Of a stretch of 64,000 nt of DNA, positions 5,778-59,835 are shown piece by piece. Origin of the DNA: Mucilaginibacter sp. KACC 22063 (GTDB lineage: Bacteria; Bacteroidota; Bacteroidia; Sphingobacteriales; Sphingobacteriaceae); NCBI RefSeq assembly GCF_028736115.1, contig NZ_CP117877.1, forward strand, positions 4,534,187 to 4,598,186, given 5' to 3'. The first letter of the stretch is position 1, and each line of letters opens with the position of its first letter. The notes under the pieces are model-generated. The model saw only the letters and a list, made by a program, of their open reading frames with translations, had not been told where the DNA came from and did no database searches. Made by a program: the position numbers and the translations under genes.

Positions 5778-5988
5778 TTCTTGATAATAAATACGTCAAT
5801 CAGTTTCCAGATGATCCCGCCAAGGAACATAATAATAGCCACTGCATTGATAATATGCATTACTTTAAGGTTAAAGCTTGTTGGCCTGTTCGGATCCTTT
5901 TTTCGAAAGAAGTACATAAAACAAAGTTAAACAAAAAAGGCGTCCCAATTGGAACGCCTTTTCTGGTATACTAATTTTGTTTAGAAAA

Positions 5989-17659: not shown

Positions 17660-17868
17660 TAAGGCTGGTTTAACCTGGTTAAGTTTAAATTAAATACAGG
17701 TCAAGATAAATATAAAATTGCCTTTTTGCCAATTTTCACTGCTTTTTGGTAATTATTAGTTAAACAAGGGCTTCGGATATAAACCCATTATCAAAAAGTA
17801 AATATCCACAACAAACTAATTCCGAGTTGAAACTATTTATATTAGAATACGTTAACCATCACTCGCTA

Positions 17869-45139: not shown

Positions 45140-45634
45140 CTAATTAACAACTTTATGCTCTTTGTTAAAATCATCCCAGCTCATTACCTGGTGATCATCA
45201 AAATAGCTTGCTACAAGTTCAATATTAAAAAGTTTAGGCTCTTCTCTAATGTTTAGCTTATTCAAGTACTTTTTATAATCTTGGTACTTACTAAATCCTT
45301 TTTCCAAACGCTTAGATGGTATAATTATGTGCCATGATTGTTTTTCATCTTTACCATCGAGAATAGTATTTATATTATAAAGAAAAATCGCATCATCTTT
45401 TACTGCTACCTTAACCGTATTTGGAAGGCCAGTATCCCCGTTTCCGAATAGATTCACACACCATCCAAATTCTTTAGAGGTTAGTATTGCTTCATAGGGC
45501 TTTAACAACGGTATTCGTGCTGAATCCCATTCTCCTTTCTCGGTATAAAACGAATCTGTTGTCGATTGTTTATTAGAATACTGTAAACAAGAAGTTAATA
45601 TCAATGATAATATAAAAAGGTACAGTTTTTTCAT
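45140..45634 (-). CDS. hypothetical lipoprotein
   Basis: Lipobox LILTSC. 164 aa. Confidence 0.5.
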   Translation of the reverse strand: MKKLYLFILSLILTSCLQYSNKQSTTDSFYTEKGEWDSARIPLLKPYEAILTSKEFGWCVNLFGNGDTGLPNTVKVAVKDDAIFLYNINTILDGKDEKQSWHIIIPSKRLEKGFSKYQDYKKYLNKLNIREEPKLFNIELVASYFDDHQVMSWDDFNKEHKVVN

Positions 45635-45720
45635 CGTTTTATATTTTTCACGTCAACTTTCATAAAGTCCCGATAATCTATTATTCACTTACGACTTAGA
45701 AAGGACTTAAAACAGTATTA

Positions 45721-46077
45721 TTAAGCCTGTCCCGGTTCTTTGATTCGACTTCTTTTAAAATTACTAAATAACATTAATCCATAACTTAGTATAATAAAGC
45801 TTTTAACTATCAATTTTTTTGTAAAGTCAGCTTGATTAAAGTACACGTCAATTTTAGAAATGGACTTACCTAATATTGTCACATTAAATAAAAAAAAGAG
45901 CAGTATAGGAATACCGACAGGAGTGTTCGTTCTGAACTCAATAAAAGGAAACACATAAGCAACTATTAAAAGCAATCCCATTTCAAGGACAGGCAAATAA
46001 TACGATTCATTGTAAATGAAATGTAAAATCAGCCAAATGATTAATATTATCGCTGTGCTATAAAATCTGAATTTCAT
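45721..46077 (-). CDS. hypothetical membrane protein
   Basis: 118 aa, 3-4 TM helices. Confidence 0.45.
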   Translation of the reverse strand: MKFRFYSTAIILIIWLILHFIYNESYYLPVLEMGLLLIVAYVFPFIEFRTNTPVGIPILLFFLFNVTILGKSISKIDVYFNQADFTKKLIVKSFIILSYGLMLFSNFKRSRIKEPGQA

Positions 46078-46223
46078 TGTAGTAACTGCATTCTAAAATT
46101 GACTAAAAATTTAATAAATACCCCGTCAGTTCTCGTTCCACTTGAGTATTGATCATCGATGGATTGTTTATAACCAGATGTTCAGAATATACTAGTATCG
46201 TGAGAGCGACTCTGAAAATCTTC

Positions 46224-46670
46224 TCAGTTTGTAATACCTAAAAAAGTTTTCAAATCATCTACATTATATAGTTCCAATGCCTTAAAAAAATAAACAGCAT
46301 GTTGTTTTCCCCTATAGTTAAATTTCATTTTATAAGAGAATCTTGCTGGTTTTCGCGCTAAGCTAAAAGCCTTTTTTAAATCAATGATTTCTGAAAGAGG
46401 CACTGTTATTTCATCTTTAGAAAAATAAGTTTTTATAGTAAGGCTCTTTGAGCTATACGACACCTTTCTATATTTCAATTGCTTGTAAGACTGCACTAAT
46501 ACAAGTATTATTAACAGAAAGTAAATAATTATAATGATGTTATCCGTGAAACTTTGAGCCCAGAAAATTCTAACAAAGATTATTATCAATATAGGTCCTA
46601 TAAATAATCCCACTAATGACCTATAGTATAAAACATCTGACGATAATTTTTTCATCTCCTTAGCTAACAC
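46224..46670 (-). CDS. hypothetical membrane protein
   Basis: 148 aa, 2 N-terminal TM helices. Confidence 0.45.
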   Translation of the reverse strand: MLAKEMKKLSSDVLYYRSLVGLFIGPILIIIFVRIFWAQSFTDNIIIIIYFLLIILVLVQSYKQLKYRKVSYSSKSLTIKTYFSKDEITVPLSEIIDLKKAFSLARKPARFSYKMKFNYRGKQHAVYFFKALELYNVDDLKTFLGITN

Positions 46671-46771
46671 TAATAGCTATATAATCCATCTTGTAAAGAC
46701 AACAGGCAATATTGATCTAAAATGCGAGATTGAGTGATCTTTAGTTAGATTAAATGTAAGAAAAATAAATC

Positions 46772-47179
46772 CTAGTGGATACCTGTAATTTGCTCCATTA
46801 TATGAAAAGCAAGCGCAAGGCTACCAATAACAAATGCTATCAAGGCTATTACTAAAAATGTACCTGCCAAATTTATATTTGGTTGCATCTTGTCAAATTC
46901 ACGTATATATTTTTTCCAATTTGAATTATGAATAAATGCAAAGTAATTAATTAAGAATACCACTAAAAGTGATATTAAAGTTTGAAATGAAAAAAAGGTA
47001 AACGCATCTTCTTGATCAATGAATTCGATGTAGTAAAATTTTAAAGATATTAAAAACAATACTTCTAAACACGAAATCGAAAATGCAGCTGTAAAATCAC
47101 TTGGAAAAATGGACGGCGACCATTCACCGAACTTATAAAATTTATAAAATAAATAATAGTATGCCCTTTTCATACTCAC
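46772..47179 (-). CDS. hypothetical membrane protein
   Basis: 135 aa, 3-4 TM helices. Confidence 0.45.
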   Translation of the reverse strand: MSMKRAYYYLFYKFYKFGEWSPSIFPSDFTAAFSISCLEVLFLISLKFYYIEFIDQEDAFTFFSFQTLISLLVVFLINYFAFIHNSNWKKYIREFDKMQPNINLAGTFLVIALIAFVIGSLALAFHIMEQITGIH

Positions 47180-47346
47180 TTTTTAATAATGATTTATAAA
47201 TCAAAAACAGGCCATAACACCCGCTATTAAAGCTACCAATCCAATTAAGAATTGGATAAGACTATCTATTTTCACTTTGACATGTAAAATAATAAGTTTT
47301 CAATTTAATTGATATAGAATAAAAAACGCAGCTCCGTTTACGCCGG

Positions 47347-47853
47347 TTATTTCATCATTATCCTTTTACGATAAACATGCCGTGATACAAGCACATTTAT
47401 AGTCTCAAAACTGATTATGATGTTGCTTTCGGAGGTGTTAAAGTACACGTTCACAAATACAGGCGTATCTATTCTGCAGGTCTTGCAAGTAATTCTATGA
47501 GATGCAGACCATCTGTACTTTTTAAAAGTAGTGTTAAAATACTTACACAGGGAGTTGAATATAGATTGATTAGGCGTTTTCATTGCATTTATGATACCAG
47601 TCCTCTTCACATCAAACCAACCTCTGTAAATCATCTCAGAATTACTGGCTTTTAGATTGAAATATATCCTATCTAGAATCTTGGATTTGATCAAATCTTT
47701 TTCAAAAGCCGCGCTATCTAAAAAAATCGTGCTTGTAAATTTAATTTTAGGTTTTAAGGCAGGAGCAGCACAGCAATCGTTTTGTGCATGGAGTTCCTTA
47801 CTTATGGTTACAAAAAATCCAATAAGCAGCAAAAGTATAAGCTTGTTCATCAC
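47347..47853 (-). CDS. hypothetical secreted protein
   Basis: Signal peptide MMNKLILLLLIGFFVTISKELHA. Cys-containing. 168 aa. Confidence 0.5.
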   Translation of the reverse strand: MMNKLILLLLIGFFVTISKELHAQNDCCAAPALKPKIKFTSTIFLDSAAFEKDLIKSKILDRIYFNLKASNSEMIYRGWFDVKRTGIINAMKTPNQSIFNSLCKYFNTTFKKYRWSASHRITCKTCRIDTPVFVNVYFNTSESNIIISFETINVLVSRHVYRKRIMMK

Positions 47854-48291
47854 TTTACTATGTTTATAGCAATTAATAAATATTAAATGAATTCTGGTTC
47901 AAACTTTATCCATTCAGCATCACTTAGATTTTACCTACTGCTCGCCCCTTAACAAAAAAACGCAGTCCTTATATGTAAGAGCTGCGTTTTTAGTACCCCC
48001 GACGAGAATATTAATACAGGCTTTTTACAGCGTTTCTGGCTCATTTTGGCTCAAATCGACTCATTTAAAATGCAAAAAAGTCCATTTGTATTTTACCTAT
48101 TATACGACTTGTAAGTGAATATGAGACGGTGGTTTATAATAGCACATAATAAGCTTTGTATTCCTCTAAGCTAATAATGTCAAATAACAACATTAAAATT
48201 AATCTAAACTTTTTCTTTTCTTGCTATGATACAATTGTCGATTATTTGAAAATACAAAAGGTATTTTATACATTAACAACAAATCTTTCAC

Positions 48292-49254
48292 ATGCCTAAG
48301 CTTAATACAAATACATTTAAAACTCTTGACGATTTACTTACGGCGGTTTATCAAGACTTAATGGAACGACCGAGTTCTATTCCAACTACAAGAAGCAAGA
48401 AAGGGGGAGACACTTGTGAAATTATTGGAGTAAGTTTGACTTTAGCCAACCCTCGTGCCCGCTTAAGTCGCTCTGAAGTTAAAGGCAAAGCATTTAGTCC
48501 TGTAGGCGAACTACTTTGGTATTTGTCTGGAAGTAATACATTAGAATTTATACAACCCTATATTTCGCATTACAAAGATGAGACAGATGATGGCAACACA
48601 ATTTATGGCGCATATGGCCCAAGGCTATTAAACATGCATAATAAATATAACCAGGTCAATAATATCATAAAATTATTAGGGCAAAAGCCCACATCTCGAC
48701 GTGCAGTTATACAACTTTTTGATGCATCAGACTTAGTTGGAACACATAAAGAAATTCCTTGTACTTGCACCTTACAATTTCTTTTGCGAGACAATCAATT
48801 AAATCTACATGTATCGATGCGCTCTAATGATGCATACATGGGCTTACCACATGACGTATTTGCCTTCACAATGTTGCAAGAAATAATGGCAAATATACTC
48901 GGTGTGGATATGGGGGCTTATCACCATTCAGTTGGGAGTCTACACCTTTATGATAATGATAGGAATCTTGTCGAACAATATTTATATGAAGGTTACCAAC
49001 CAACGAAATTTTATATGCCAGCTATGCCGAAAGTTGATCCTCGGCCAGCGATTAAGCAAATAATTAAACTTGAAGAGCTTATCCGAACGGATCAATCCTT
49101 TTGTCTTGATGGCCTTGATCCATATTGGGTTGATATCATAAAAATGGTACATATTCATTTTCTGAGTAAGAAAAAAGATATCACTGGCATCAGAAATGTT
49201 ATGGCTGGCATGAATGACATTTACAAAATGTATATTGAAAAAAAGATTTGTTAA
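48292..49254 (+). CDS. thymidylate-synthase-family enzyme (ThyA fold), predicted deoxycytidylate-type pyrimidine C5 hydroxymethylase/methylase
   Basis: Aligned from memory with E. coli ThyA: ELLWYLSGSNTL vs ELLWFLQGDTNI; TSRRAVIQLFD vs DSRRIIVSAWN; catalytic Cys in IPCTCTLQF vs APCHAFFQF; MRSNDAYMGLPHDVFAF vs QRSCDVFLGLPFNIASY; GSLHLYDN vs GDTHLYSN. The specificity Asn (ThyA N177) is replaced by Asp (PHD), as in dCMP hydroxymethylase. Confidence 0.8.
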   Translation: MPKLNTNTFKTLDDLLTAVYQDLMERPSSIPTTRSKKGGDTCEIIGVSLTLANPRARLSRSEVKGKAFSPVGELLWYLSGSNTLEFIQPYISHYKDETDDGNTIYGAYGPRLLNMHNKYNQVNNIIKLLGQKPTSRRAVIQLFDASDLVGTHKEIPCTCTLQFLLRDNQLNLHVSMRSNDAYMGLPHDVFAFTMLQEIMANILGVDMGAYHHSVGSLHLYDNDRNLVEQYLYEGYQPTKFYMPAMPKVDPRPAIKQIIKLEELIRTDQSFCLDGLDPYWVDIIKMVHIHFLSKKKDITGIRNVMAGMNDIYKMYIEKKIC

Positions 49255-49272
49255 TTCGCGCTTTTAAATATT

Positions 49273-50070
49273 ATGGTCGACGAAATAACAGAATTAGTTG
49301 AACGACTTTCAAATCCAAATCTCGCGGAATTAGATGTAATTACATGGGGAGCTCCTGTGCCTACATTTGGTAACTTAGAAGGCGCTAAAATTGCTACACT
49401 GGGTTTAAATCCAAGTAACAAAGAATTTGTAGACAATTCTGGTAATGAATTAATAGGTAACGCAAGACGCTTTCATACCTTAAGCTCATTAGGATTGGAG
49501 GCTTGGGAAGACGTACAACCTTGTCATCTCAACTCAATTGTTGAGTTATGTAATGAGTATTTTTTAAGAAATCCTTATGATGGTTGGTTTAAACGATTAG
49601 ACTATCTAATATCAGGTACATCTTTATCATATTATTTCCCCTCATCAGGGGCTTGTCATTTGGATTTAATACCTTACGCAACAACCACTAAATGGGGAGA
49701 ATTGACTAATTGGCAAAGAAATACGCTACTGAAAGAATATGGAGACATACTTGGTGAATTATTACGGAAGTCATCCATAAGATTATTAGTTCTTAATGGT
49801 AAAAGTGTCTTGGATAACTTCAATAAAATTTCAGATGTTAATTATGAAATTACATTGATGGAAGATTGGTGTTTACCAAGAAAAGACAGTACAGGAGTTC
49901 CTGGGTTTTCTTATGAAGGCATTTGCAGAAATATTGGAGGTGTATCTTTAGATGAACCTCTTTGTGTACTTGGATTTAATCATAATATTCAAAGTAGCTA
50001 CGGTATAACAACTGCAATTCAAGAATCAATTAGAAAATGGATAGCCACCAAATCGGCCAGCTTTTTATGA
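49273..50070 (+). CDS. hypothetical protein co-operonic with the TS-like enzyme (weak UDG-superfamily-like motif)
   Basis: 265 aa, 19 bp after the TS-like gene. GLNPS resembles uracil-DNA-glycosylase superfamily motif A (GxNPG/GINPG). No P-loop. Assignment is tentative. Confidence 0.5.
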   Translation: MVDEITELVERLSNPNLAELDVITWGAPVPTFGNLEGAKIATLGLNPSNKEFVDNSGNELIGNARRFHTLSSLGLEAWEDVQPCHLNSIVELCNEYFLRNPYDGWFKRLDYLISGTSLSYYFPSSGACHLDLIPYATTTKWGELTNWQRNTLLKEYGDILGELLRKSSIRLLVLNGKSVLDNFNKISDVNYEITLMEDWCLPRKDSTGVPGFSYEGICRNIGGVSLDEPLCVLGFNHNIQSSYGITTAIQESIRKWIATKSASFL

Positions 50071-50993
50071 GACTTTCAAGGGATATAGAGTTAGAAACTT
50101 CGTTAGTAAGTAGTCTTAAAGCTTTTCAAAACACAACCCCCTTATTAGGAATTGCGAATCAGCCAGAGCTTGACTGCTTTGTAAAACAGCTTGTGGATAG
50201 TGTACGTAGGATACAATATGTAACAACTATACGTGATAAAATAAATACACCGAGTTGTGTTAATCCTAACCTTGGCGGATTTAACCCCATTAAAGCGGCT
50301 GCGTTTCATCATGCTAATGGAAATTCGGAAGAAGCTTCTTGGCTTGTATTTTTAGCCACACATTTTGGCAAAAATAAAGCATCGGGATGGCAATTACTAC
50401 AAGATGTCTACGGTACTTTGGGAATGGGCATATTCGATTGGCAACAAGCATGTCAGTCTCCTCGAGGACTCGGAATATGGATTGATAATAATAAGAATCA
50501 GTTAAAAGCAAATGGTGGCAACTTTGGTAACCATCGAAAATATCAAAGCCTTAAAGTAAATAATACCGGCCAAACTATTTCGAGCTATATTGATTGGATT
50601 GGCAAAACCAAATCTCATTTAGTTAAATTTTTACAACTTGAACCAAACCAAGCTAATCCCAAAATACGATTTAGGGCATTTTATAATTCAATGTTACAAG
50701 TATATGGATTTGGAAGAACTGCTGTATTTGACTATTTAACCATGATGGGCAAATTGCAGCTTATTGATGTAGAACCCGACTCTGTATACATGATCGGCGC
50801 CACGGGGCCATTTAAAGGAGGACGGCTCCTTTTTACTGGAAGTTGTAATGCCTCAATTACACGCCGCCAAATGGATCGAATGCTGTCTTCACTTAACCAA
50901 CATTTAGGTATACCATTTGGGATGCAAGTATTAGAGGATGCTTTATGTAATTGGCAGAAATCTCCTAATCAGTATATTTATTTTAGCGGTTAA
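50037..50993 (+). CDS. hypothetical protein, third gene of the TS-like operon
   Basis: 318 aa. Start overlaps the previous gene by 34 nt (translational coupling). No motif I can assign with confidence. Confidence 0.55.
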   Translation: MDSHQIGQLFMRLSRDIELETSLVSSLKAFQNTTPLLGIANQPELDCFVKQLVDSVRRIQYVTTIRDKINTPSCVNPNLGGFNPIKAAAFHHANGNSEEASWLVFLATHFGKNKASGWQLLQDVYGTLGMGIFDWQQACQSPRGLGIWIDNNKNQLKANGGNFGNHRKYQSLKVNNTGQTISSYIDWIGKTKSHLVKFLQLEPNQANPKIRFRAFYNSMLQVYGFGRTAVFDYLTMMGKLQLIDVEPDSVYMIGATGPFKGGRLLFTGSCNASITRRQMDRMLSSLNQHLGIPFGMQVLEDALCNWQKSPNQYIYFSG

Positions 50994-52080
50994 AATCAGG
51001 TATTGCCTCCCAAGTATATTTCCTTTTATAAGAATTGAATCTATTATATTCGATTTTTCCGAAATGCTGCATCTGACCAATCAAAATACCTGCAGAAACA
51101 CCAATTTTTGAGGCAAAACCGATAATAAGCCTTTTATTGCTCACTGGCAATTTCATCATATTTTCGCGATAAATAGAGGGTATTAATTGTTCAGCAGCAA
51201 ATTCATTGGCTTCCTTTTCTTCTTCGCTTGTAAGCCTGTTTCTGCTAATTTCTTCAACAAACACAGAGTTTTGCCCATGCAATAACAAGTGGCCAGCCTC
51301 ATGAAAAAAAGTAAACCAAAAGTGATCATCAGTCAGATAACGAAAGCTGAGCATTAATAAAGCTCTATTTGGACTCAAAAATTTAGTTACACCACTCGCC
51401 TGACAACCATTAGGAGTTCGAACAATCGCAATAGCAACTCCACATTTAGCACAAATCGCCTTTAGCTTAGGCAAGAAAATCTCAGGTTCTTTAATTTTTG
51501 TTAGTGAACGTATTTCTGTTAGTGATGCTGCAAACAGTGCGGCATTCCAGTCTTTACATTCTATCGATTGACTTTGTATTTCTCCCTGTCTAAGCCATGC
51601 CGCGACAGCAGCTGGCTGTTGTTTGAAACTGGAAGATGTCCGAAATGACACTTGCGCCATTTCTGCTTGATATTTATTATGCCACTCATTGATATCAGAG
51701 ACTCCGAAATAAAGTAGCAATGCGTCAACACTTTTAGCTACCTCTTCCTTTATCCACCCGAAGTTTATCATATCACGTATTGGCAAAAGCTTAAGCCATG
51801 ATTGTTCCGCAACCTTTTTCAACCTCACAAGCCCTTCTCTGTATTGAAATTCTCTTCTTAACCAAAAGTCGACAGATGCACCAAGTATTTCTGAGAGCTT
51901 TTGAGACGTTTCCTCTGTAATTACCGCAGTACCATTCAAAAGCTCATTTATAAAACCTATGGAACTATTCATTTGAGCTGCGAAATGATGTACAGATATC
52001 TTCTTTTCTTCCAGTAATTCAACAATTGTGTCTCCTGGTACTGAAATCCAATTAGGTTTAAATGTTTCTGTGGTTAACAT
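50983..52080 (-). CDS. XRE-family HTH fused to ImmA/IrrE (COG2856) zinc metallopeptidase domain; HigA-like antitoxin/regulator
   Basis: N-terminal HTH (ISVHHFAAQMNSSIGFINELLNGTAVITEETSQKLSEILGASVDFW). C-terminal FTFFHEAGHLLLHG (HExxH of ImmA/IrrE). Starts 2 nt after the HigB-like ORF. Confidence 0.8.
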   Translation of the reverse strand: MLTTETFKPNWISVPGDTIVELLEEKKISVHHFAAQMNSSIGFINELLNGTAVITEETSQKLSEILGASVDFWLRREFQYREGLVRLKKVAEQSWLKLLPIRDMINFGWIKEEVAKSVDALLLYFGVSDINEWHNKYQAEMAQVSFRTSSSFKQQPAAVAAWLRQGEIQSQSIECKDWNAALFAASLTEIRSLTKIKEPEIFLPKLKAICAKCGVAIAIVRTPNGCQASGVTKFLSPNRALLMLSFRYLTDDHFWFTFFHEAGHLLLHGQNSVFVEEISRNRLTSEEEKEANEFAAEQLIPSIYRENMMKLPVSNKRLIIGFASKIGVSAGILIGQMQHFGKIEYNRFNSYKRKYTWEAIPDFNR

Positions 52081-52082
52081 AA

Positions 52083-52400
52083 TTATTGGATTTTTACAAT
52101 TTTAATACGATTAACTTTATTCCAATCTAACTGATCTTCCTTATTTAACGGCTGATGTTGATGAACAGAAAGAAAAATAAGAAAATGTGACGGCAATATT
52201 TCAATTTGGTAAGCAGGCCGACCTTCCAAAACTACTTCCTTTGGAGAACCCGTAGGAATATCCATTACACAATTTGCAGCCATAATATCAGCTAATCGTG
52301 TTTTAAGCTTTTTAGCAAAAACACTACCCAGTTGATCCTGAGCAAATTCCTCATTTTCACAAATCATGCGCAATGTTGGATCTGAAAAAGAGATGTGCAA
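52083..52400 (-). CDS. HigB-like (RelE/ParE superfamily, plasmid-maintenance killer-type) toxin
   Basis: 105 aa. Resembles HigB from memory (KKLKTRLADIMAANCVMDI vs HVKKLRMRLDVLDAAECLHDL; PAYQIEILPSHFLIF vs HSIRINDQWRICFVW). Toxin-first order with an HTH partner downstream. Confidence 0.6.
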   Translation of the reverse strand: MHISFSDPTLRMICENEEFAQDQLGSVFAKKLKTRLADIMAANCVMDIPTGSPKEVVLEGRPAYQIEILPSHFLIFLSVHQHQPLNKEDQLDWNKVNRIKIVKIQ

Positions 52401-52595
52401 CGCTTATTATATACTTAAAAGTCAATGATAAAGTTTGGGATCTCTGAATGAAATCATCGACAAAACTATTAAAAAATACTTTATTTAGAATTGATTAAAG
52501 GGTTTAATGTATGAATTGTTGATAAAATTAACAGTTGTTGAAAGTATAAAACGCATGATATATATTAAGCCCGTTAAAAAGCCTATTTTGTATCA

Positions 52596-52976
52596 ATGAT
52601 CATCCCAGTTGCTGCTGCCATAATAATAAAGGACAATAAGATTATGATTGCCAAACGATCACAACATAAGCATTTGGGTGGCTTTTGGGAGTTTCCTGGC
52701 GGTAAAATAGAGGCTAACGAGACTGCTGAAAACTGTTTGTTACGCGAACTAAATGAAGAGCTCAAAATAAAAATAAAAGTAATTAGCTATTTGGCTGAAA
52801 ATACATACGATTATGGCTCAATAAAAATTTTGCTTAAGGCATTTATATGTCATTTTATAAGTGGGCAATTTACACTAATTGACCACGATGAAGTAAGATG
52901 GGTGACTACTAAACAACTGCAAGATTACAATATGGCTCCTGCGGACATTCCATTCCTGAAATTACTTACCAACTAA
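52596..52976 (+). CDS. Nudix hydrolase, MutT/NudG-like (8-oxo-dGTP / (d)CTP pyrophosphohydrolase family)
   Basis: 126 aa. Nudix box GGFWEFPGGKIEANETAENCLLRELNEELKI. Confidence 0.85.
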   Translation: MIIPVAAAIIIKDNKIMIAKRSQHKHLGGFWEFPGGKIEANETAENCLLRELNEELKIKIKVISYLAENTYDYGSIKILLKAFICHFISGQFTLIDHDEVRWVTTKQLQDYNMAPADIPFLKLLTN

Positions 52977-53291
52977 TAGAATGAGCAATGTAAGATTCTT
53001 GATATATCCTTCTAACTACGTTTCTTAACCTATGTAATAAATCGATCTTATTTAATCGATACCATATTTAGTTGAAATCAGGTACAAGTGTTCGCTTTAG
53101 TGGAATTCCCCAAAAAATAGGCATTAAAAACACAGGTTCGATTCCTATCCGAAATAATATAAAAATGTCAACCTTACAGAAATTCGTCAATTACTAGCCT
53201 CTTATCGTTGCTTAGGTAAAGCAGTAGGTAAAATTTTAGATGTTTTTAGTATAATAAATATTAAAAACATCTCTCTAAATTGTGGCGACGA

Positions 53292-55286
53292 TTAGATTAC
53301 TACTAACAACCGTCGTTTTAGCAATTCTACAACTTGTTGTGTAAACAGATTTTTTAATTTATGATTTTCTTGTGCGCCATTTTGCTGAAATAAATCACAA
53401 AATTTTCTGAATCCCTCATTCATATTATTTCTGCCGTCAAACACCATTATAATGTAATAGGCTAGAGAGCTTATCTCAAAATGAATGACTTCATAAACTG
53501 AATGTATCTCAAAAAGAAAATGAGATTTGCCTTTCAAGTTTTTTGATGGCAAATGCAACGGGACATCTATCTGGTTAATATTCCAATTTGACTTGTAAAT
53601 TTTACAATATGGATTTAATCTAAGTATGACATTTTCATCGATACAATCATTCAAAATCTTGTTACCTAAAAAACTTAAATTTCTTCTTTCAACGTAGCGT
53701 TGATATTCAAAAATAAAATTATTATAGTCATTGCAATCACTCAAAAATTGGTGTTTACTCAATTCAAAGTCAAAAACTGCCTTTATAAGTTTATTTTTCA
53801 AATCGTGAGATTTCAGTCTATATAGGTCTTTAATCATTTTCTTGACAAAGAAAGACGGATGCTTATTGACTTGTTCGATTTCAAGGGATCTCAATGCGTA
53901 AATATGATTACCTACATGTTTTATTAAAGCAATAGTTTTTGGAAAGGCTTTTGAAAACATCTTATCTCGGATGTTCGAAAGTTCTAAATTAAATCTTTTA
54001 ACAGGCGAAGGGCTTTCGGGAATTAATATGTCCATCATCTTACTTTCTTTACGAAGTGATATCAAATAAAAATAACCAACACCGGCAAGGCCATTAAATA
54101 AACCTAAATTATTCTCAGGGAGTGCGGTTGGAGCAACTAGTCCTAAGACTCCTATTCTCTTTGCCTGCGATGATGCAGCTATTGCTATATTTTCGATCAA
54201 TTCTTCTTGGTAAGTATTGGGAAACATTTCTACGAATTGACGCAGCAAGTAGGCATTTCCTCCTACAGCATGGCATAAAGTATAATTACTATAATTATTT
54301 TTTATTTTACTTATTGAAGCGATTGTTGCATTTAATGCAATCGTCGCATCTTTAAGATATTTCTTGTCTCTAAAAAACTCATACATCTTCAATCTACACA
54401 TTCCAATTCCTGCTGCACCATGGCACCATGCGATCATCAATCCAGGTTCATTAAGTTTACTCATCTGAGCGCGATAACCGCTTTCACTCAAACTTTCGCT
54501 GTATTCAGAAGTGTCCTCAGAACGAAAATCAGGCCAGTTATCATGTGACTTATCAAATAGTTGATCTTCATACAAGTAGGCTTTGTCGATTAGGTATTTA
54601 ATATCAGGGTTTCCAAAAAACTTATAAAGTTCCGTTAATACCCATAACATGCCGGATACTCCATGTGCAAAACCACATAGACCAGCCATATAAATTTTTG
54701 ATTTCTCCCAATAAATTGATCCATTGGCTGACAGACAATGATTTTCAATTAGATCATTTGTAAAAAATTCAATTTGTTTTACAATTTTGATATCTTCTGT
54801 GATCGAGTATAAATTTAAAAGTGCCAAAATAGCACCGCCCGTTCCAGAAATCACATCTTTATTTTCCATCCAGTGAAACTGATTGTCAGTATCACAGTCC
54901 TTCATTACCCTTCTAGCTTGCGCTAAGAGATAGTTATCACCTGTGATCTTGTAAACCTTAGTAAGTACATAGGATACCCCCCCTCTCCCAGAATAAAAAC
55001 CGTAATTATTTGCTGAGTTATTTTCGCAAAAATGAATTAACCAGTTAGCGGCTTTTAAAATTACGTCTAAAATTTCCTGATGCTTGAAGAATAAATAAGC
55101 CTCAGACAAAAACAATATTATCCCAGCATTACCTGCATAAATACTATCGCCAACAATCTTATCATAACATTTTGTCAACCTATTATAGTTAATTGTCTCC
55201 CAATAATAGCCTTGCTCATCTTTTAACTTACTAGCAATTATTAGGTTTAATATTTCATTAAGCGTGTAATGTGTCTCGGAATCCAT
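53292..55286 (-). CDS. LanC-like lanthipeptide cyclase with ~240-aa C-terminal extension of unknown function
   Basis: LanC motifs SGTGGAI, GFAHGVSG (GxAHGxxG), AWCHGAAGIG (WCxG) and LCHAVGG (CH Zn ligands) in residues ~30-430. Residues ~430-664 unassigned. Confidence 0.8.
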   Translation of the reverse strand: MDSETHYTLNEILNLIIASKLKDEQGYYWETINYNRLTKCYDKIVGDSIYAGNAGIILFLSEAYLFFKHQEILDVILKAANWLIHFCENNSANNYGFYSGRGGVSYVLTKVYKITGDNYLLAQARRVMKDCDTDNQFHWMENKDVISGTGGAILALLNLYSITEDIKIVKQIEFFTNDLIENHCLSANGSIYWEKSKIYMAGLCGFAHGVSGMLWVLTELYKFFGNPDIKYLIDKAYLYEDQLFDKSHDNWPDFRSEDTSEYSESLSESGYRAQMSKLNEPGLMIAWCHGAAGIGMCRLKMYEFFRDKKYLKDATIALNATIASISKIKNNYSNYTLCHAVGGNAYLLRQFVEMFPNTYQEELIENIAIAASSQAKRIGVLGLVAPTALPENNLGLFNGLAGVGYFYLISLRKESKMMDILIPESPSPVKRFNLELSNIRDKMFSKAFPKTIALIKHVGNHIYALRSLEIEQVNKHPSFFVKKMIKDLYRLKSHDLKNKLIKAVFDFELSKHQFLSDCNDYNNFIFEYQRYVERRNLSFLGNKILNDCIDENVILRLNPYCKIYKSNWNINQIDVPLHLPSKNLKGKSHFLFEIHSVYEVIHFEISSLAYYIIMVFDGRNNMNEGFRKFCDLFQQNGAQENHKLKNLFTQQVVELLKRRLLVVI

Positions 55287-55494
55287 TATAAAATTTGATG
55301 TTTAGCTTCCTGTTCAATATTTCATTAACTTCCAATATAGTAAACTTGGCAAACTAACAACTACAGGCCTTAAATTTTGACATTTTCAGTTCCATGTCTA
55401 AAAAATTCATTAAATAAAATTCATATAAAACCTACTTTGAATATGAAAAAAATTTATCTTAGAGAAGATTTATAACCTGTAAATAAATTTTATC

Positions 55495-55785
55495 ATGAAA
55501 AAAAAATTAGACCTAAGTGAACTCAAAGTTCAGTCCTTTATCACATCTCTCGACGAAGCTCAAACAAAATCTGTCAAAGGCATGAGTACAGGTACCGACC
55601 CAACATCTCAAACAAACTATGTGGAATGTTGCAATACCACATTTGATCCGTGGAATACTTCTGCTACGTGTTCGGTTGCATATTGTGCCACGACAGTTCC
55701 AAGAGAATGTGATGCAACAGGAATGTACTACGCAACTTGTGACGGAAGTTGTCCAACTCAAACTCCTGGCTATGGCGATTGCTAA
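55495..55785 (+). CDS. lanthipeptide precursor peptide (LanA-like)
   Basis: 96 aa. Leader MKKKLDLSELKVQSFITSLDEAQTKSVKG carries an LDL box like the class I FNLD motif. The C-terminal ~66-aa core has 8 Cys, 14 Thr and 5 Ser. Sits between the LanC and LanB-C genes. Confidence 0.75.
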   Translation: MKKKLDLSELKVQSFITSLDEAQTKSVKGMSTGTDPTSQTNYVECCNTTFDPWNTSATCSVAYCATTVPRECDATGMYYATCDGSCPTQTPGYGDC

Positions 55786-55850
55786 TTGATAAACGGGTCA
55801 TTCCGACTTTACAGAATGACCCGTTTATCAATCAGCGATTTTAAGCATAA

Positions 55851-56768
55851 TTAAAAACCACCTATCCCTATCAGTAACATATAATAAAGATAGCTTTCAT
55901 CATGATTACTTATTCCCAGCCGGTTGTTTGTCATGTGCAATAAACTTCCAAGTATTCTCCACGTATCTGGCACTTTTGTCTTTTCCAAGCTAGTATCTAT
56001 GATAGAATTAAAGTTTGTTTTGAGTGCGATATAATCATTGTAAAAATTCTTTGCGTGATTATTCCAAGATTTTATGAGCTCATCATCAAACATTCCCGAT
56101 ATGCACTGATCCCAAATTAACTTTAATTTTAATTTTAAAAGTTCTTTATTTGCTTGTATAGCTTCACTAAATTTACTTTTGCATACCTCTACTACAGTGT
56201 CCTTTTGTAATTGTAGATTTTCATTTTTATTTATAATACGCCACGCATGTAAAATCCAAGATTCTATTTGAAAATTCAGAAACTGTCTCAACGATTCTTT
56301 ATCCAAGTTCATATTAACCAGAAAAATCAAATGCATTTCAAAACCACACATCATCTTTTGGTTATAATTATCTAATCTTTCCTTTTTGAATAGAGACAAT
56401 ATTATCTTTGAAGATTCGAAGAAATTTTTTTCGGCCAATCTAATTACTTTGTCTCCACCATATCGCTCTATCTCTGGAACGTATGGAACGGCCTGAACCA
56501 TTTCACCTGGTCTCTCAGTTATACCAAATTCACTTTTTAAAAATTCACTGTATTTGCTTTTTAAAACCTCATTAAAATCGAATTGAGACTTACTGCCAGA
56601 TAAAAACCGCAATCTGACATGTGGTCCCCCCTCAAAATATCGAATGAAAAAAAATTCCCCGTTTGTAGTCAGGTTCAGGTCATTAACTAACGGTTCTACA
56701 AACTTATGTATCAAAAAGTCAAGCGGCTTCAATGTAAAATATATATATACCGATTTCCAGTTTCTCAT
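55851..56768 (-). CDS. lanthipeptide dehydratase C-terminal (glutamate-elimination) domain protein, split LanB
   Basis: 305 aa. FFIRYFEGGPHVRLRF matches the hallmark of the Lant_dehydr_C / thiopeptide-type bacteriocin biosynthesis domain. Stand-alone size is typical of split LanB. Confidence 0.75.
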   Translation of the reverse strand: MRNWKSVYIYFTLKPLDFLIHKFVEPLVNDLNLTTNGEFFFIRYFEGGPHVRLRFLSGSKSQFDFNEVLKSKYSEFLKSEFGITERPGEMVQAVPYVPEIERYGGDKVIRLAEKNFFESSKIILSLFKKERLDNYNQKMMCGFEMHLIFLVNMNLDKESLRQFLNFQIESWILHAWRIINKNENLQLQKDTVVEVCKSKFSEAIQANKELLKLKLKLIWDQCISGMFDDELIKSWNNHAKNFYNDYIALKTNFNSIIDTSLEKTKVPDTWRILGSLLHMTNNRLGISNHDESYLYYMLLIGIGGF

Positions 56769-56903
56769 ACTGTAAAAATACTTTTTAAATTAATTCTAGG
56801 GCACATTCAAATGTGCTTGTAGACTATATTTGTATTAGATTAAAATATTGACTTATTTGCTTAAAAAGTTAGATATACGTCTAATGACCTATTAAACTTT
56901 ATC

Positions 56904-58208
56904 ATGACATATTGCCTTACCATTTTTAAATTAAAAAGCCTGCCGTTAGCGCTAGCTTTAGGATTCATCTCATTTTCTTTGCCAGGAAAACATAGAATAA
57001 TGTCAAATCGCTTTATTTCTTTTGAAGTTTATTCCTTATTAATTCAAGATCAAAGTGGCAGTCCGATACCATTTGCCACATTAACCAACACATCGCAGAA
57101 TTATTCACGTCCATTTGATAATACCGGGAAAATGGAACTGGAATCGAAAGATTTAAAAGCTGATGATAACATTATAATAAGTTGTCTAGGCTATCAGACA
57201 AAAAATCTTAAAGGGCTAGACATTATGTCTGTAAAATCACTTGCTGTAACACTAAAAGATGATATCGTCTCCTTACATGAGGTAAAGATTATACCTAGTA
57301 AATACGACTTAATATTTAAAAACATTCAAGCTCTACCGTTTCCACTCTATTATCAAGCTTACGCAACCGATGGTCGGTATGCTTACACTATTGGCGGGGA
57401 ATCCGGTGCTACAGTATGTACACAAGCACTAAAGTTTGACCCGCATTCTAATACGTGGAGCCTGTTAGCTAACCATTTAAAACCTACAATTCAATCAACT
57501 GCTACTTATTTACCGATTTCAAATAAAATTTATGTTTTTGGAGGAATAACCTCGCTTGTCAATTTTACATATTTTGAAAACGTTGAAACAATTGATGTCA
57601 ACACAGGGAAAGTAGAGATATTAAATGTAAAAAATCCGATGCCATCAGCATATGGTGGATCGGATACTTGGGCTAATAAAATTTATCTATTTGGAGGCTG
57701 CAGTGATATTAACAACTATACATCCAGCAAAGCAACCAACGATTTTTATGAATATGATCCCGTGACCAATGTGTTTACAAGGCTCCCGAACATGCCAGAA
57801 AAATTACAGACAAGTGGTCGAATTATAAATGGCATTTTATATATATTAGGTGGATTTAACCCGCAGAATGCACATATAAGTAGAAATATCTACAGTTACA
57901 ACATTAGAGAAAAATACTGGAAATTATTAGGAAAATTACCAGAAGAAGTTTCAGGAAACGGTCTTTCTGCTATAGGTAATTTGATATTTGTTTCGGGAGG
58001 TTATGAAAAAGAAACATTCTTAGGCTTCCTAAATACGCAAACTGGAGAGTTCACAAAGCTCAAGTCTAACATGACGGGTCGAAGACACTCAGCTTCTGTC
58101 ATTTTATATAATCATTTAATGATAATTGGGGGGAAAGGTGACGGTAATATTACCGGACTAAACAATGTCCAGGTTGCAAACTTGGAAAGTTTGATAACTA
58201 ATCAGTAA
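56904..58208 (+). CDS. Kelch-repeat beta-propeller protein
   Basis: Six repeats with xGG ends (YAYTIGG, KIYVFGG, KIYLFGG, ILYILGG, LIFVSGG, LMIIGG). N-terminal hydrophobic segment. Confidence 0.7.
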   Translation: MTYCLTIFKLKSLPLALALGFISFSLPGKHRIMSNRFISFEVYSLLIQDQSGSPIPFATLTNTSQNYSRPFDNTGKMELESKDLKADDNIIISCLGYQTKNLKGLDIMSVKSLAVTLKDDIVSLHEVKIIPSKYDLIFKNIQALPFPLYYQAYATDGRYAYTIGGESGATVCTQALKFDPHSNTWSLLANHLKPTIQSTATYLPISNKIYVFGGITSLVNFTYFENVETIDVNTGKVEILNVKNPMPSAYGGSDTWANKIYLFGGCSDINNYTSSKATNDFYEYDPVTNVFTRLPNMPEKLQTSGRIINGILYILGGFNPQNAHISRNIYSYNIREKYWKLLGKLPEEVSGNGLSAIGNLIFVSGGYEKETFLGFLNTQTGEFTKLKSNMTGRRHSASVILYNHLMIIGGKGDGNITGLNNVQVANLESLITNQ

Positions 58209-58225
58209 AAGTATAAAGTCTACTT

Positions 58226-59284
58226 GTGAATATCAGAATTACACTTTGCAGTCGTCCAGACGATCAAGAAGTCATAGATTTAAGGAAAAGAATTAAGGAT
58301 ACAAGCGGATACTCCACTTTTAGAAGCGAAGATTCTAAAAGGGAATTTACATACATTACCATTTCAAATATTGAAGAAGTCATAAATGACTCTGCCATTA
58401 AGATTTTAAGTAATCGATTTTATCACTTATTATTGAGACCCAATACTTCGAAAAGTATCCAAACCAATCAGTCGAAAATTTTTAACTGGCTAATTGAAAT
58501 TCCAATTTATGAATCAATTATTGACAAAAGAATCAAACTTACACTTGATATGTTTACGAACTATCATAAGATAAATTTCACAGTTCTTAAATCATCAAGT
58601 AGTAAAATATTATCAATAAGTCTTCTCAATCAAATACCTGAATTTTTAAGTAATTTATACACTTTACTGCTTTCTTTAACCGGCCCAGTAGATGCGCATC
58701 AAGCAAGGCACGAGATCGTATTGCAAGAGATTATTGCAAAAAAATCACGATTTGTACTTGAATTAGGATGTGGAAAAGGCAACTTTATTACACGTTTAAA
58801 TCGTGCATTGCCTGACATTCAAATCTGTGGTATTGAAATAAATCTTGATGATTTTCAACATGCGACAGCATATTTCGAACGACAAATTCATTCAGGACTA
58901 ATTTCTATGGTCAATGATTCGATATGCTGTTTTGAAAAATGGCCGCCGGGAGTTGACTGCATCACTTTAAATGAAGTAATCGAACATCTTACAGAACAAG
59001 AACTAAACCAGACCATCAAGCATATTTTTAACAACGTAAAACCGGAAGTAGTTATTATCACAACTCCCAATAAGAACTATAATAAATATCTCAAGCTTAC
59101 AGAAGAAGGGTTCCGACATCCCGATCATCGTTTTGAGCTCAGTCGCGAAGAATTTTCCAGGTTCGCAGCTAGAGTGATCAATGATCATGAATATGGATTT
59201 GAAATACTTCCTCATTGGTGGATTCGGGATGGTTTGGAATCATTGTCAACTATAGCCATTTTCACAAAATATTCTTGCACTTGA
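58226..59284 (+). CDS. class I SAM-dependent methyltransferase (C-terminal half) with unassigned N-terminal domain
   Basis: Motif I VLELGCGKGNF, acidic residue after beta-2 (GIEIN), motif IV-like DCITLNEVIEHL. Confidence 0.65.
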   Translation: MNIRITLCSRPDDQEVIDLRKRIKDTSGYSTFRSEDSKREFTYITISNIEEVINDSAIKILSNRFYHLLLRPNTSKSIQTNQSKIFNWLIEIPIYESIIDKRIKLTLDMFTNYHKINFTVLKSSSSKILSISLLNQIPEFLSNLYTLLLSLTGPVDAHQARHEIVLQEIIAKKSRFVLELGCGKGNFITRLNRALPDIQICGIEINLDDFQHATAYFERQIHSGLISMVNDSICCFEKWPPGVDCITLNEVIEHLTEQELNQTIKHIFNNVKPEVVIITTPNKNYNKYLKLTEEGFRHPDHRFELSREEFSRFAARVINDHEYGFEILPHWWIRDGLESLSTIAIFTKYSCT

Positions 59285-59307
59285 TATCTATTGGTAATTA
59301 TCTAAAG

Positions 59308-59835
59308 TCACTGAGGGTATAAGGTTTTTAATCTCATACCCACAGAGTCGACTATTTTTTCTAAAACTGAGGTTCTCTTTACAACAACCGACAAATGTAA
59401 TTTTAAGTGTGGATTTTGTCTTAGAAGTCTTTTTATTGAGGAATCGATTTTGAATTTTACAAGCGTTTCGGTTTCGGTTATAGGCGTTACGTTTAACAGC
59501 TTCAAACTTAAGGCAGCATTGCGCTTTAATTTAACATCGTAGGCTTTAATGATGATATCTTTCTCGAGCCTGTCGTCTATCGGTTTCCTTATAGGAATAA
59601 TTATAGATGAATAATAATAGCAATTATTACCTTCAGAACAATTGATTAATGTATTTGATTCAATTGTCTTTATAACCGGATAATCGATTAGAGATAACAA
59701 TAATAGTGTGAAAAATAAGAATAAAGATGATAGAAAAATTCCCCACCGTATCGCCCATGGCGGGCTGGAAAGAATTATATTATCGATTTCAACTGTATGC
59801 TTTTTAGCGTACTTTTTAGAATTTAAGTTTTTCAT
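59308..59835 (-). CDS. short HlyD-like membrane-anchored accessory protein
   Basis: N-terminal TM then IDYPVIKTIESN, like the HlyD N-terminus. Only 175 aa. Overlaps the ABC exporter stop by 4 nt. Confidence 0.45.
   Translation of the reverse strand: MKNLNSKKYAKKHTVEIDNIILSSPPWAIRWGIFLSSLFLFFTLLLLSLIDYPVIKTIESNTLINCSEGNNCYYYSSIIIPIRKPIDDRLEKDIIIKAYDVKLKRNAALSLKLLNVTPITETETLVKFKIDSSIKRLLRQNPHLKLHLSVVVKRTSVLEKIVDSVGMRLKTLYPQ

Follow-up and report, generated by a model that had tools for sequence, protein, structure and literature searches.

A five-gene cassette and its distribution

The window analysed here, a stretch of 64,000 nucleotides from Mucilaginibacter sp. KACC 22063 (contig NZ_CP117877.1, positions 4,534,187 to 4,598,186), carries a cassette of five genes, which we call A to E, in which a predicted cytosine-type hydroxymethylase stands beside a glycosylase-fold protein, a relative of phage DNA-hypermodifying enzymes and a putative protease switch. 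The genes are laid out as follows (positions are those of the window).

48292 to 49254, forward strand: gene A, 320 amino acids (aa), a MilA-like pyrimidine C5-hydroxymethylase of the thymidylate synthase (TS) fold, predicted substrate deoxycytidylate (dCMP)
49273 to 50070, forward strand: gene B, 265 aa, an unnamed family of the uracil-DNA glycosylase (UDG) superfamily whose Asn motif is of the MUG/TDG type; predicted to be a glycosylase that flips a 5-substituted pyrimidine out of DNA
50037 to 50993, forward strand: gene C, 318 aa, aGPT-Pplase clade 3, an AADT-type helix-hairpin-helix (HhH) enzyme, probable start at ATG 50067
50983 to 52080, reverse strand: gene D, a HigA-like helix-turn-helix (HTH) domain joined to a zinc metalloprotease of the M78 (ImmA/IrrE) type; predicted to switch or regulate the cassette
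52083 to 52400, reverse strand: gene E, 105 aa, upstream of D in the same operon, possibly HigB/RelE-like

Genes A, B and C thus run tail-to-tail with E and D, and the unit extends to position 52400. A, B and C are real genes, each with hundreds to thousands of homologues at E-values down to 1e-100 and beyond, and the B and C products are 100% identical to proteins of the named strain. The initial annotation of this DNA had given the three forward open reading frames (ORFs), all of which are present, and had taken them for an operon of three unknowns. That description has to be revised, as C belongs to a named Pfam family and the conserved unit comprises five genes, including the convergent HTH-M78 gene and the small gene beside it. 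The AT-rich island in which they had been placed is real as regards its low G+C content (0.29-0.38, against about 0.42-0.47 in the first 44 kb), but low G+C is not confined to the locus: it begins at about 45 kb and persists as far as the window's end.

We surveyed the cassette with patterns from gene B, run against one genome per species across 185,579 species, which found relatives in 157 stretches, and 80 loci were retrieved; 72 loci with enough flanking sequence form the basis of the gene-content counts, and 74 or 75 loci that of the junction distances. Genes A to D occur together in 71 of the 72 loci and all five genes in 66, with order and orientation alike in 67 of the 68 complete modules. 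B and C are found in 75-80 of the 80 loci and each has 40-61 residues that at least 97% of the sequences share, gene E is detected in 66-71 loci, and the gene B homologues of the 80 loci are 44-65% identical to the window copy. The spacer between A and B is 18 nt, and the TGA stop of B overlaps an ATG of C (ATGA, 50067-50070), which is probably the true start of C since its homologues begin there (median distance from B stop to C start of -4, 75 loci) and since residues 1-11 of the longer frame are disordered in a predicted model that is otherwise confident (AlphaFold2, AF2; pLDDT 92.6). In 71 of 74 loci the stop codons of C and D lie within -33 to +20 bp of each other, abutting or overlapping, and in the window they overlap by 11 nt, which leaves no room for terminators between the convergent units.

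The hosts span Bacteroidota, Acidobacteriota, Verrucomicrobiota, Alpha-, Beta-, Gamma- and Deltaproteobacteria, Chloroflexota, Planctomycetota, Gemmatimonadota, Spirochaetota (Leptospira) and others. No relative of B or C was found by tblastn in 50,697 phage genomes, and the module occurs in 4 of the 2.9 million viral contigs of IMG/VR, counts on which we reject a phage or prophage origin and which set the cassette apart from the DNA-hypermodification clusters that phages encode for their own DNA. The loci lie in bacterial chromosomes and one Leptospira plasmid, as expected from the original placing of the cassette outside a prophage. On that plasmid the RefSeq labels read 'thymidylate synthase', hypothetical proteins (the C-like gene being split in two), 'ImmA/IrrE family metallo-endopeptidase' and again hypothetical. 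Clustering of the flanking ORFs of the 80 loci revealed nothing else that recurs in most of them: no P-loop, nucleotide or 5-hydroxymethyl-base DNA kinase, no glucosyltransferase, and no pyridoxal phosphate (PLP), radical S-adenosylmethionine (radical-SAM) or flavin adenine dinucleotide (FAD) tailoring enzyme. We conclude that the cassette is a horizontally mobile, self-contained five-gene unit; our literature search found no paper characterising it, and in this respect the original description of an uncharacterised system stands.

A few loci depart from the common layout. An Azoarcus metagenome-assembled genome (MAG; L053:7205-12356) has the order A, C, DUF4031, B, then D, E, and a Verrucomicrobiota MAG (L010:2507-4284) has A and B alone, with unrelated genes downstream. 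In two near-identical IMG/VR contigs (L084 and L085, 910-8693 and 13804-17883) a complete cassette stands between giant ORFs of 1121-1472 aa, one of which has a non-contractile tail-sheath TIM-barrel domain, and the cassette there may be prophage or tailocin-like cargo. Extra ORF clusters inside the module proved to be antisense artefacts, and the split A, C or D genes of several loci were set aside as a sign of counter-selection, frameshift-prone assemblies being suspected.

The predicted enzymes and their putative switch

Among the families searched (Pfam, NCBIfam, PHROGs and PADLOC), gene A matches Pfam Thymidylat_synt (PF00303) at 7e-28, and the NCBIfam thyA equivalog models score it at 27-93 bits against cut-offs of 108-576 (the best at 92.7 bits against a 327-bit cut-off). 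A search of the PDB matched it to MilA (5jnh) at 1.2e-49 over residues 5-315, that is, over the full length including the C-terminal helical extension, compared with 9e-22 for the best true thymidylate synthase; phage pyrimidine hydroxymethylases match it in the catalytic core alone, at 33-42% identity. Across 71 homologues from other genomes, residues E73, Y108, R136, C157, R177, S178, D180, H187, D188, H218 and Y220 are invariant, as are the motifs P156-C157-T-C, R177-S178-N-D180 and G-L-P-H187-D188. The fold, together with the Cys, the equivalents of Glu58 and Tyr94 and the phosphate-binding Arg, places gene A in the TS / pyrimidine C5-hydroxymethylase superfamily. The initial annotation had rested on the catalytic Cys, an RR phosphate clamp and the R-S-x-D motif; these are conserved apart from the second Arg of the clamp, R137, which is Arg in 31 homologues, Gln in 26 and Lys in 13.

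The substrate prediction turns on three sites. D188 aligns with MilA Asp186, Asp179 of the T4 dCMP hydroxymethylase (dCH) and Asn177 of E. coli ThyA, and it is Asp in 71 of 71 homologues, which bears out the ThyA-fold enzyme with an Asn-to-Asp cytosine switch that had been proposed. In MilA, Asp186 (Asp179 in T4 dCH, with Asn177 at that site in ThyA) selects cytosine, while ribose is selected by Ala176 and Lys133' and deoxyribose by the Ser/Arg pair of ThyA and T4 dCH, the T4 dCH equivalents being Ser167 and Arg126'; the A176S/K133R double mutant of MilA loses its CMP activity and keeps its dCMP activity (PMC5175136). Gene A differs from MilA in having Ser178 and Arg136 in place of Ala176 and Lys133, the very pair that, when engineered into MilA, switches it from CMP to dCMP. 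The ternary complex of T4 dCH further identified as a hydroxymethylase signature Asp145, three residues before the catalytic Cys, where ThyA has Leu143, and linked it to water activation (PMC6400193). The equivalent position 154 of gene A is acidic in 57 of 71 homologues (Asp in 40, Glu in 17, Ser in 8, another residue in 6) and Glu154 in the window copy, matching this signature.

As D188, S178 and R136 are invariant and position 154 is acidic, the earlier alignment was right and the assignment can be sharpened: gene A has the residues of a deoxycytidylate 5-hydroxymethylase of the T4 gp42 type and is predicted to be one, its product being presumably 5-hydroxymethyl-dCMP (hm-dCMP). It is not the housekeeping thyA, as had been anticipated, having Asp188 in all homologues and falling below the equivalog cut-offs. 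With MilA and T4 gp42 it shares the TS fold, the catalytic Cys, Glu and Tyr, the Asp at the ThyA Asn177 site and the acidic residue before the Cys. The likeness to T4 dCMP hydroxymethylase drawn initially thus holds for the cytosine switch, but the closest characterised relative is MilA and not the T4 enzyme. Gene A differs from MilA also in that it does not lie within an antibiotic cluster, and from gp42 in that its cassette includes no partner dNMP kinase or glucosyltransferase.

Gene B found no match at E <=0.1 in Pfam, NCBIfam or PHROGs and none in PADLOC, and its profile matched no PDB chain, UDGs included. Its AF2 model, built with 40 homologues, has a pLDDT of 92.7, and the top 18 Foldseek matches of this model are all human TDG (E about 1e-5, probability 1.00), so that the likeness of its GLNPS motif to UDG motif A, remarked on in the initial annotation, is confirmed at the level of the fold. 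The motif (G44-L-N46-P47-S48, with GxNPS invariant) follows directly on the first core beta-strand (40-44), and an invariant N236-H237-N238-x-Q240-S241-S242 follows the last strand (224-235), where motif B of UDGs lies; both placements were judged by the order of secondary structure. MUG and TDG have GINPG or GMNPG after strand 1, the Asn of which is catalytic, and the G-x-N-P-x of gene B resembles it and, by that order, would stand at the same point. TDG and SMUG1, its fold neighbours, both handle 5-substituted pyrimidines. Gene B departs from the superfamily in that its sequence resembles no UDG family of Pfam and no PDB chain, in its second motif NHNxQSS and in about 100 extra, highly conserved residues (roughly 50-125). 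Because the model has the alpha/beta fold of UDGs and the sequence matches no curated family (families 1-6 included) or PDB chain, we regard gene B, as modelled, as the founding member of a new family within the UDG superfamily. A UDG fold can serve phage defence, as Brig1, Brig2 and Brig3 show: these UDG-superfamily glycosylases protect against phages through the excision of modified pyrimidines. They are encoded in loci of one or two genes, whereas gene B is always embedded in the five-gene cassette.

Gene C is a member of the aGPT-pyrophosphorylase family, exactly the family that the initial annotation had suggested checking: it matches Pfam aGPT-Pplase3 (PF18746) at 1e-90 and ADDT (PF18724) at 4e-67, and NCBI already names it so. 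A profile of the family matched no PDB chain. The solved structure closest to the model is PaMx11 gp46, the phage 5-PmdU glycinyltransferase (PUGT), followed by QNG1. In gp46, Cys247 is the nucleophile at C6 of the base, a metal ion is kept on thymine O4 by Glu243 and Thr244, and FGPW is the DNA-kinking motif (PMC11472151). An hhalign comparison, with a weak score (E 0.065), sets LEDALCNW of gene C on VETILCKW of gp46 (E243, T244, C247) and FGRT on FGPW. Residues E300, D301, C304, N305, W306 and K308 of gene C are invariant, E300 and C304 in 74 and 42 sequences, and because this E-x-x-x-C aligns with the catalytic motif of gp46, the essential Cys with Glu four residues upstream, we conclude that the core for covalent catalysis, a Glu/Cys pair, is kept. 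The surroundings of this core are altered: the Thr on the O4 side (Thr244 in gp46) is replaced by the invariant Asp301, and gene C has no counterpart of the Trp with which gp46 clamps the base and binds glycine, FGPW having become FGRT. It is tempting to speculate that the Thr-to-Asp change parallels the Asn-to-Asp switch of gene A. Gene C is predicted to be a covalent catalyst (Cys to C6) that exchanges the C5-methyl substituent of a hydroxymethyl-pyrimidine.

The pairing of a TS-like hydroxymethylase with an HhH-fold aGPT-Pplase recalls the thymidine-hypermodification pathway of phages, in which a dUMP hydroxymethylase acts with 5-HMUDK and an AADT (M6 gp51, ViI gp247, PaMx11 gp46), and gene C shares with gp46 the catalytic E-x-x-x-C-x-W motif. 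The differences are nonetheless considerable, as gene C belongs to clade 3, which is linked to clade 2 through structure or profile comparison only, the hydroxymethylase has a cytosine and not a uracil signature, the cassette is cellular and not viral, and it includes neither a 5-hydroxymethyl-base DNA kinase nor any tailoring enzyme of the PLP, radical-SAM or FAD kind. Phage AADT pathways need a DNA kinase to create the leaving group (PMC8989533; PMC11472151). As none of the 80 loci has a co-encoded kinase of this kind, we file gene C as a homologue with probably related chemistry and not as a proven AADT. The clade names of the aGPT-Pplases reportedly originate with the comparative genomics of Iyer et al. 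2013 (NAR), and this gene neighbourhood may already have been drawn there or by Burroughs et al. 2015 (NAR).

Gene D matches Pfam Peptidase_M78 (4e-10) and HTH_3 (9e-5), and it has an HExxH motif (H260, E261, H264) that is invariant in 71 homologues, as in HTH-M78 regulators of the ImmA/IrrE type. It matches the PADLOC model PD-Lambda-2_B nearly end to end (2.3e-24), the RmrA and CapP models as well, and TIGR02607 HigA below the cut-off (4.7e-9). The window copy of gene E has no family match in Pfam, PADLOC, NCBIfam or PHROGs, and its profile matched nothing in the PDB; Pfam HigB-like_toxin is matched weakly by 5 of 42 homologues (best E 0.0018). Its conservation is poor, with L32 and D38 alone invariant and R11, C14, E15, H80 and W93 nearly so. 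E and D follow one another at a distance of 2 nt in the toxin-first order, with a HigA-like partner in second place as higB precedes higA, and gene E is possibly HigB-like on this evidence. Several known pairs are thereby called to mind, namely PD-Lambda-2, CapH/CapP and ImmR/ImmA with their HTH and M78 protease, and HigB/HigA, yet the resemblance is partial in each case. Only D matches PD-Lambda-2, for E is unlike PD-Lambda-2_A and neither E nor A to C match any PADLOC model of that three-protein system; E matches no toxin model convincingly; and the E-D pair, in contrast to all of these systems, is convergent with and not upstream of the operon that it would control, with no operator found.

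A model for the cassette and its alternatives

We propose a model for the cassette in two parts. The part that we regard as solid is that the cassette couples the predicted synthesis of a C5-hydroxymethylated deoxycytidine nucleotide to two putatively base-flipping, pyrimidine-directed enzymes under a protease/HTH switch, the enzymatic steps being read from residues and folds. Beyond this we favour, as a tentative reading to which we would assign somewhat less than an even chance, an inducible conflict system based on hydroxymethyl-cytosine, every enzymatic step of which is again deduced from conserved residues and predicted folds. Until a signal of infection or DNA stress arrives, the E/D pair would keep the cassette silent or inactive, in the manner of protease-repressors of the ImmA/IrrE/CapP type. 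Gene A would then convert dCMP and methylene-tetrahydrofolate to hm-dCMP, draining the dCMP pool, with an optional NUDIX hydrolase supplying dCMP from dCTP. Gene C would attack C6 of hydroxymethyl-cytosine (hmC) in replicating DNA and swap its hydroxyl for another nucleophile, giving a bulky adduct, and gene B would flip out and excise the modified or unprocessed base, leaving abasic sites, while in some genomes an Mrr-type nuclease would cut the marked DNA. The net effect would be a block to the replication of a phage or mobile element.

This model gives a possible role to the missing kinases. T4 needs its own dNMP kinase to use hm-dCMP, and because the host probably cannot phosphorylate hm-dCMP, its incorporation may depend on a phage dNMP kinase; without a kinase in the cassette, hm-dCMP may be raised to the triphosphate chiefly by the broad dNMP kinase of an infecting phage, which would provide for self/non-self discrimination. 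Furthermore, a plain copy of the phage hypermodification pathway is unlikely, since the cassette has no 5-hydroxymethyl-base DNA kinase, the hallmark of such pathways. The hydroxyl of 5-hydroxymethyl-cytosine (5hmC) could, on chemical grounds, plausibly be displaced directly, given bisulfite and methyltransferase chemistry, though for aGPT-Pplase clade 3 such a reaction is conjectural. Carried to its conclusion, the model would describe a Trojan-horse nucleotide immunity and the first cytosine-directed member of the AADT class, in which the host makes an hm-dCMP that its own CMP kinase cannot use, only a phage dNMP kinase converts it to hm-dCTP, only replicating phage DNA is marked, and B, C (needing no base kinase) and in some genomes Mrr make lethal lesions. 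We think it rather unlikely that all of this holds; if it did, the distinction between self and non-self would rest on nucleotide metabolism and not on sequence.

Hints in favour of a conflict system come from the resemblance of gene D to PD-Lambda-2_B, RmrA and CapP, from the low-G+C DNA around the window copy and from defence and integrase genes among the neighbours; the three accessory genes described below add a theme of DNA and cytosine nucleotides. There are also parallels in recent work. Phage dNMP kinases are reported to trigger a system that uses base-modified nucleotides (bioRxiv 2024.12.20.629578). The machine-learning screen DefensePredictor lists an unvalidated aGPT-Pplase system among its predicted defence systems, and describes as validated a different one, composed of a TS, a dNMP kinase, a 5-hmdU kinase and NMAD (PMC13092281). 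The listed aGPT-Pplase system may be the present cassette, as the figure legend defines HTH next after aGPT-Pplase.

Several points weigh against the conflict model. The known AADT reaction needs a phosphorylated hydroxymethyl group, yet no kinase is present, and gene C might act off DNA, given that its second-best structural neighbour is QNG1, which acts on a mononucleotide. Gene B could be a repair or sanitising enzyme and not an effector. The case for a HigB-like gene E is weak, and control of A-B-C by gene D is conjecture because the regions upstream of A and of E share no operator, the longest words in common being those expected by chance (67 loci). None of the PADLOC models covers A, B, C or E, so that the cassette is not a known defence system, and its defence-gene neighbours are scattered singles that do not amount to a statistical enrichment.

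The best of the alternatives, and the option that the initial annotation had put first, is hypermodification of the host's own DNA as an epigenetic mark, in which gene A and host kinases would partly replace genomic C with 5hmC, C would derivatise the 5hmC to protect or mark the chromosome or island, B would remove mutagenic by-products, such as the 5-hydroxymethyl-uracil (5hmU) that arises from deaminated 5hmC, or intermediates left unprocessed, and D and E would time expression. All three enzymes are related to phage DNA-hypermodification or base-excision chemistry, TDG and SMUG1 excise 5hmU according to the titles of their PDB entries, and the cassette is island-borne and patchy like Dnd and Dpd. 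We nonetheless consider this reading unlikely, as the cassette has neither a dNMP kinase for hm-dCTP nor a 5-hydroxymethyl-base DNA kinase. It also has no restriction partner that is constant (only 6 of 80 loci have an Mrr-type nuclease), and a protease switch like that of a toxin-antitoxin system would be an uncommon form of control for a mark that is always present. Since modified DNA is what enzymes of the Mrr type usually attack, such neighbours would harm a host that marked itself.

The absence of a kinase together with the dCMP signature of gene A would also suit an attack on the nucleotide pool only, in which A, aided by the NUDIX hydrolase, drains dCTP and dCMP into a dead-end hm-dCMP that the host CMP kinase cannot use, starving the phage as dCTP-deaminase defence does, and B and C clean up the host's hmC. 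Nucleotide depletion had been among the proposals of the initial annotation. A NudG-like pyrimidine dNTP pyrophosphatase does recur beside the module, and the pair of T4 gp56 dCTPase and gp42 is a parallel to NUDIX and gene A. On the other hand, B and C are as conserved and constant as A, more so than would be expected of accessories for cleaning up, the NUDIX gene accompanies only about 15% of loci, and the Mrr-nuclease accessory points to DNA as the target, which leaves pool attack alone a fairly improbable account.

It is quite improbable that the cassette makes a small molecule or signal from free nucleotides, as MilA/MilB and BcmA/BcmB do, with A making hm-dCMP and C, B or both cleaving or derivatising the mononucleotide to an antimetabolite, or to a second messenger that D/E would sense, E being the toxin. 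MilA is indeed the best full-length relative of A, QNG1, a nucleotide glycosylase of the HhH fold, is the second-best structural match of C, and the window copy adjoins a lanthipeptide cluster. An N-glycosidase comes after the hydroxymethylase in the mildiomycin and bacimethrin pathways (PMC4081090). Yet gene A has the deoxy signature (Ser178, Arg136) and not the ribo signature of MilA (Ala176, Lys133), the best match of C acts on DNA, with the E-x-x-x-C of PUGT shared and its FGPW having FGRT as sole counterpart, the fold family of B is known only on DNA, and no biosynthetic genes recur in the flanks.

Nor do we give much credence to a Brig-like defence against phages that already carry hydroxymethyl-pyrimidine DNA, in which B would excise and C derivatise hmC or hmU, with A in a secondary part as competitor, decoy or source of a priming substrate. 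Brig1 and Brig3 act on the DNA of T-even phages, from which they remove glucosyl-5hmC and 5hmC, while hypermodified thymidine is the target of Brig2, and the chemistry predicted for gene C fits hydroxymethyl-pyrimidines, but such a defence leaves unexplained the invariant, catalytically intact dCMP hydroxymethylase of every locus, and Brig systems are loci of one or two genes. Finally, an ordinary thymidylate synthase beside two unrelated genes, as the public label 'thymidylate synthase' on homologues and the Thymidylat_synt match might suggest, is ruled out to near certainty by the Asp in place of Asn at the uracil-selecting site of 71 of 71 homologues, the thyA equivalog scores of 27-93 bits against cut-offs of 108-576, the far closer match to MilA than to any TS (1e-49 against 9e-22) and the strict linkage with B to E across phyla.

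To our knowledge, every characterised aGPT-Pplase/AADT and almost every characterised pyrimidine hydroxymethylase serves either a phage decorating its own DNA or an antibiotic pathway. The chemistry of the cassette differs, being tuned to deoxycytidine and not to uracil or CMP, lacking the kinase that the phage pathways need, joined to a new UDG family and a protease switch, and travelling as one cassette in the chromosomes of at least 157 bacterial species of many phyla. Each protein falls within a known superfamily. In the literature searched we found no characterised counterpart to the combination of the three enzymes, to a signature for both cytosine and deoxyribose, to a clade-3 aGPT-Pplase with no kinase beside it, to the new family of UDGs, to an HTH-M78 pair in convergent orientation or to a spread through cellular genomes of so many phyla. 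On the whole we take the cassette to be, most likely, a so far uncharacterised system of virus defence or of DNA marking, assembled from parts that had been studied in phages only. Its function, once worked out, could reveal either a modified nucleotide as a new cellular weapon against intruders or, for the first time, a bacterial DNA mark derived from 5hmC, as well as a first activity for clade-3 aGPT-Pplases, a new glycosylase specificity of use in 5hmC biotechnology and a role for DUF4031.

Accessory genes, neighbours and the leader of gene A

Three accessory genes, and a non-coding region upstream of A-B-C, accompany the cassette in the window or at other loci.

52596 to 52976, forward strand: gene F, a MutT/NudG-like NUDIX hydrolase, possible (modified) dCTP pyrophosphatase, divergent from E
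L012, L013, L043, L053, L057, L058, L060, L063, L067, L069 and L073 (for example L057:8604-8933 and L013:9641-9943): loci with DUF4031
L002:13829-14620, L035:8206-8913, L050:13230-13946, L006:367-882, L007:1487-2191 and L076:9326-9970: loci with Mrr_cat
47870 to 48291, no strand assigned: non-coding region with candidate control elements

Gene F matches Pfam NUDIX_4 (5e-21), the PADLOC candidate PDC-S07 (3.9e-50) and, below the cut-off, the NCBIfam pyrimidine (d)NTP diphosphatase NF007834 (4e-34), and a homologous NUDIX gene stands beside the module in 12 of the 80 other loci, in three different positions. DUF4031, a protein of about 100 aa with invariant WCH..AD and ASYPHYD motifs, occurs in 11 loci, mostly of Beta- and Gammaproteobacteria, none of which has the NUDIX gene as well; it stands immediately before A or, in some loci, is inserted between A and B, and its profile has no solved relative in the PDB. 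A protein of about 235 aa with the restriction-endonuclease-fold domain Mrr_cat adjoins the cassette in 6 loci from four phyla, with varying position and strand, and may be an optional nuclease effector. Because all three recur in minorities of loci at shifting positions, we take NUDIX, DUF4031 and Mrr_cat to be probably linked in function to the cassette.

The other neighbours include integrases, transposases, a type IIG restriction-modification (R-M) gene with an AAA_15/HNH pair, a Bub-like system, Kiwa, PD-Lambda-1 and TIR-TM. In one metagenomic locus (L082:14319-16624 and 17070-17955) the cassette lies beside a Multi_ubiq/ThiF/BubE (Bub-like) operon, a separate HTH and M78 pair and IS21, and in another (L081:1-263 and 5030-6984) beside an Eco57I-type R-M gene and an AAA_15/AAA_21 ATPase with an HNH nuclease, of Septu-like appearance.

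In the window itself, the cassette is adjoined at 53292-62012 by a lanthipeptide-type cluster with a 664-aa LanC-like protein, Lant_dehydr_C, a Kelch-repeat protein, a methyltransferase and an ABC exporter with a C39 peptidase; these neighbours are specific to this window and are not kept beside the cassette elsewhere. On the other side, at 45140-47853 on the reverse strand, five consecutive small ORFs of 118-168 aa have the lowest G+C (0.29-0.32), and several are hydrophobic and membrane-like; four of the five, leaving aside the 118-aa ORF at 45721-46077, have no Pfam match. The window has no tRNA to mark an island border.

A scan for promoters and terminators gave the same counts as shuffled sequences, and a search of 47300-53300 against Rfam found no riboswitch or other known RNA at E <=1. 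The 420 bp upstream of gene A hold no forward-strand ORF of at least 50 aa. Two candidate control sites stand in the leader of gene A, namely a tandem TTYTGGCTCA at 48034-48053 and an inverted repeat with 11-nt arms at 48066-48076 and 48085-48095 (TAAAATGCAAA and TTTGTATTTTA). Upstream of both lies a strong hairpin at 47956-47991 with flanking A and T runs, which could act as a bidirectional terminator.

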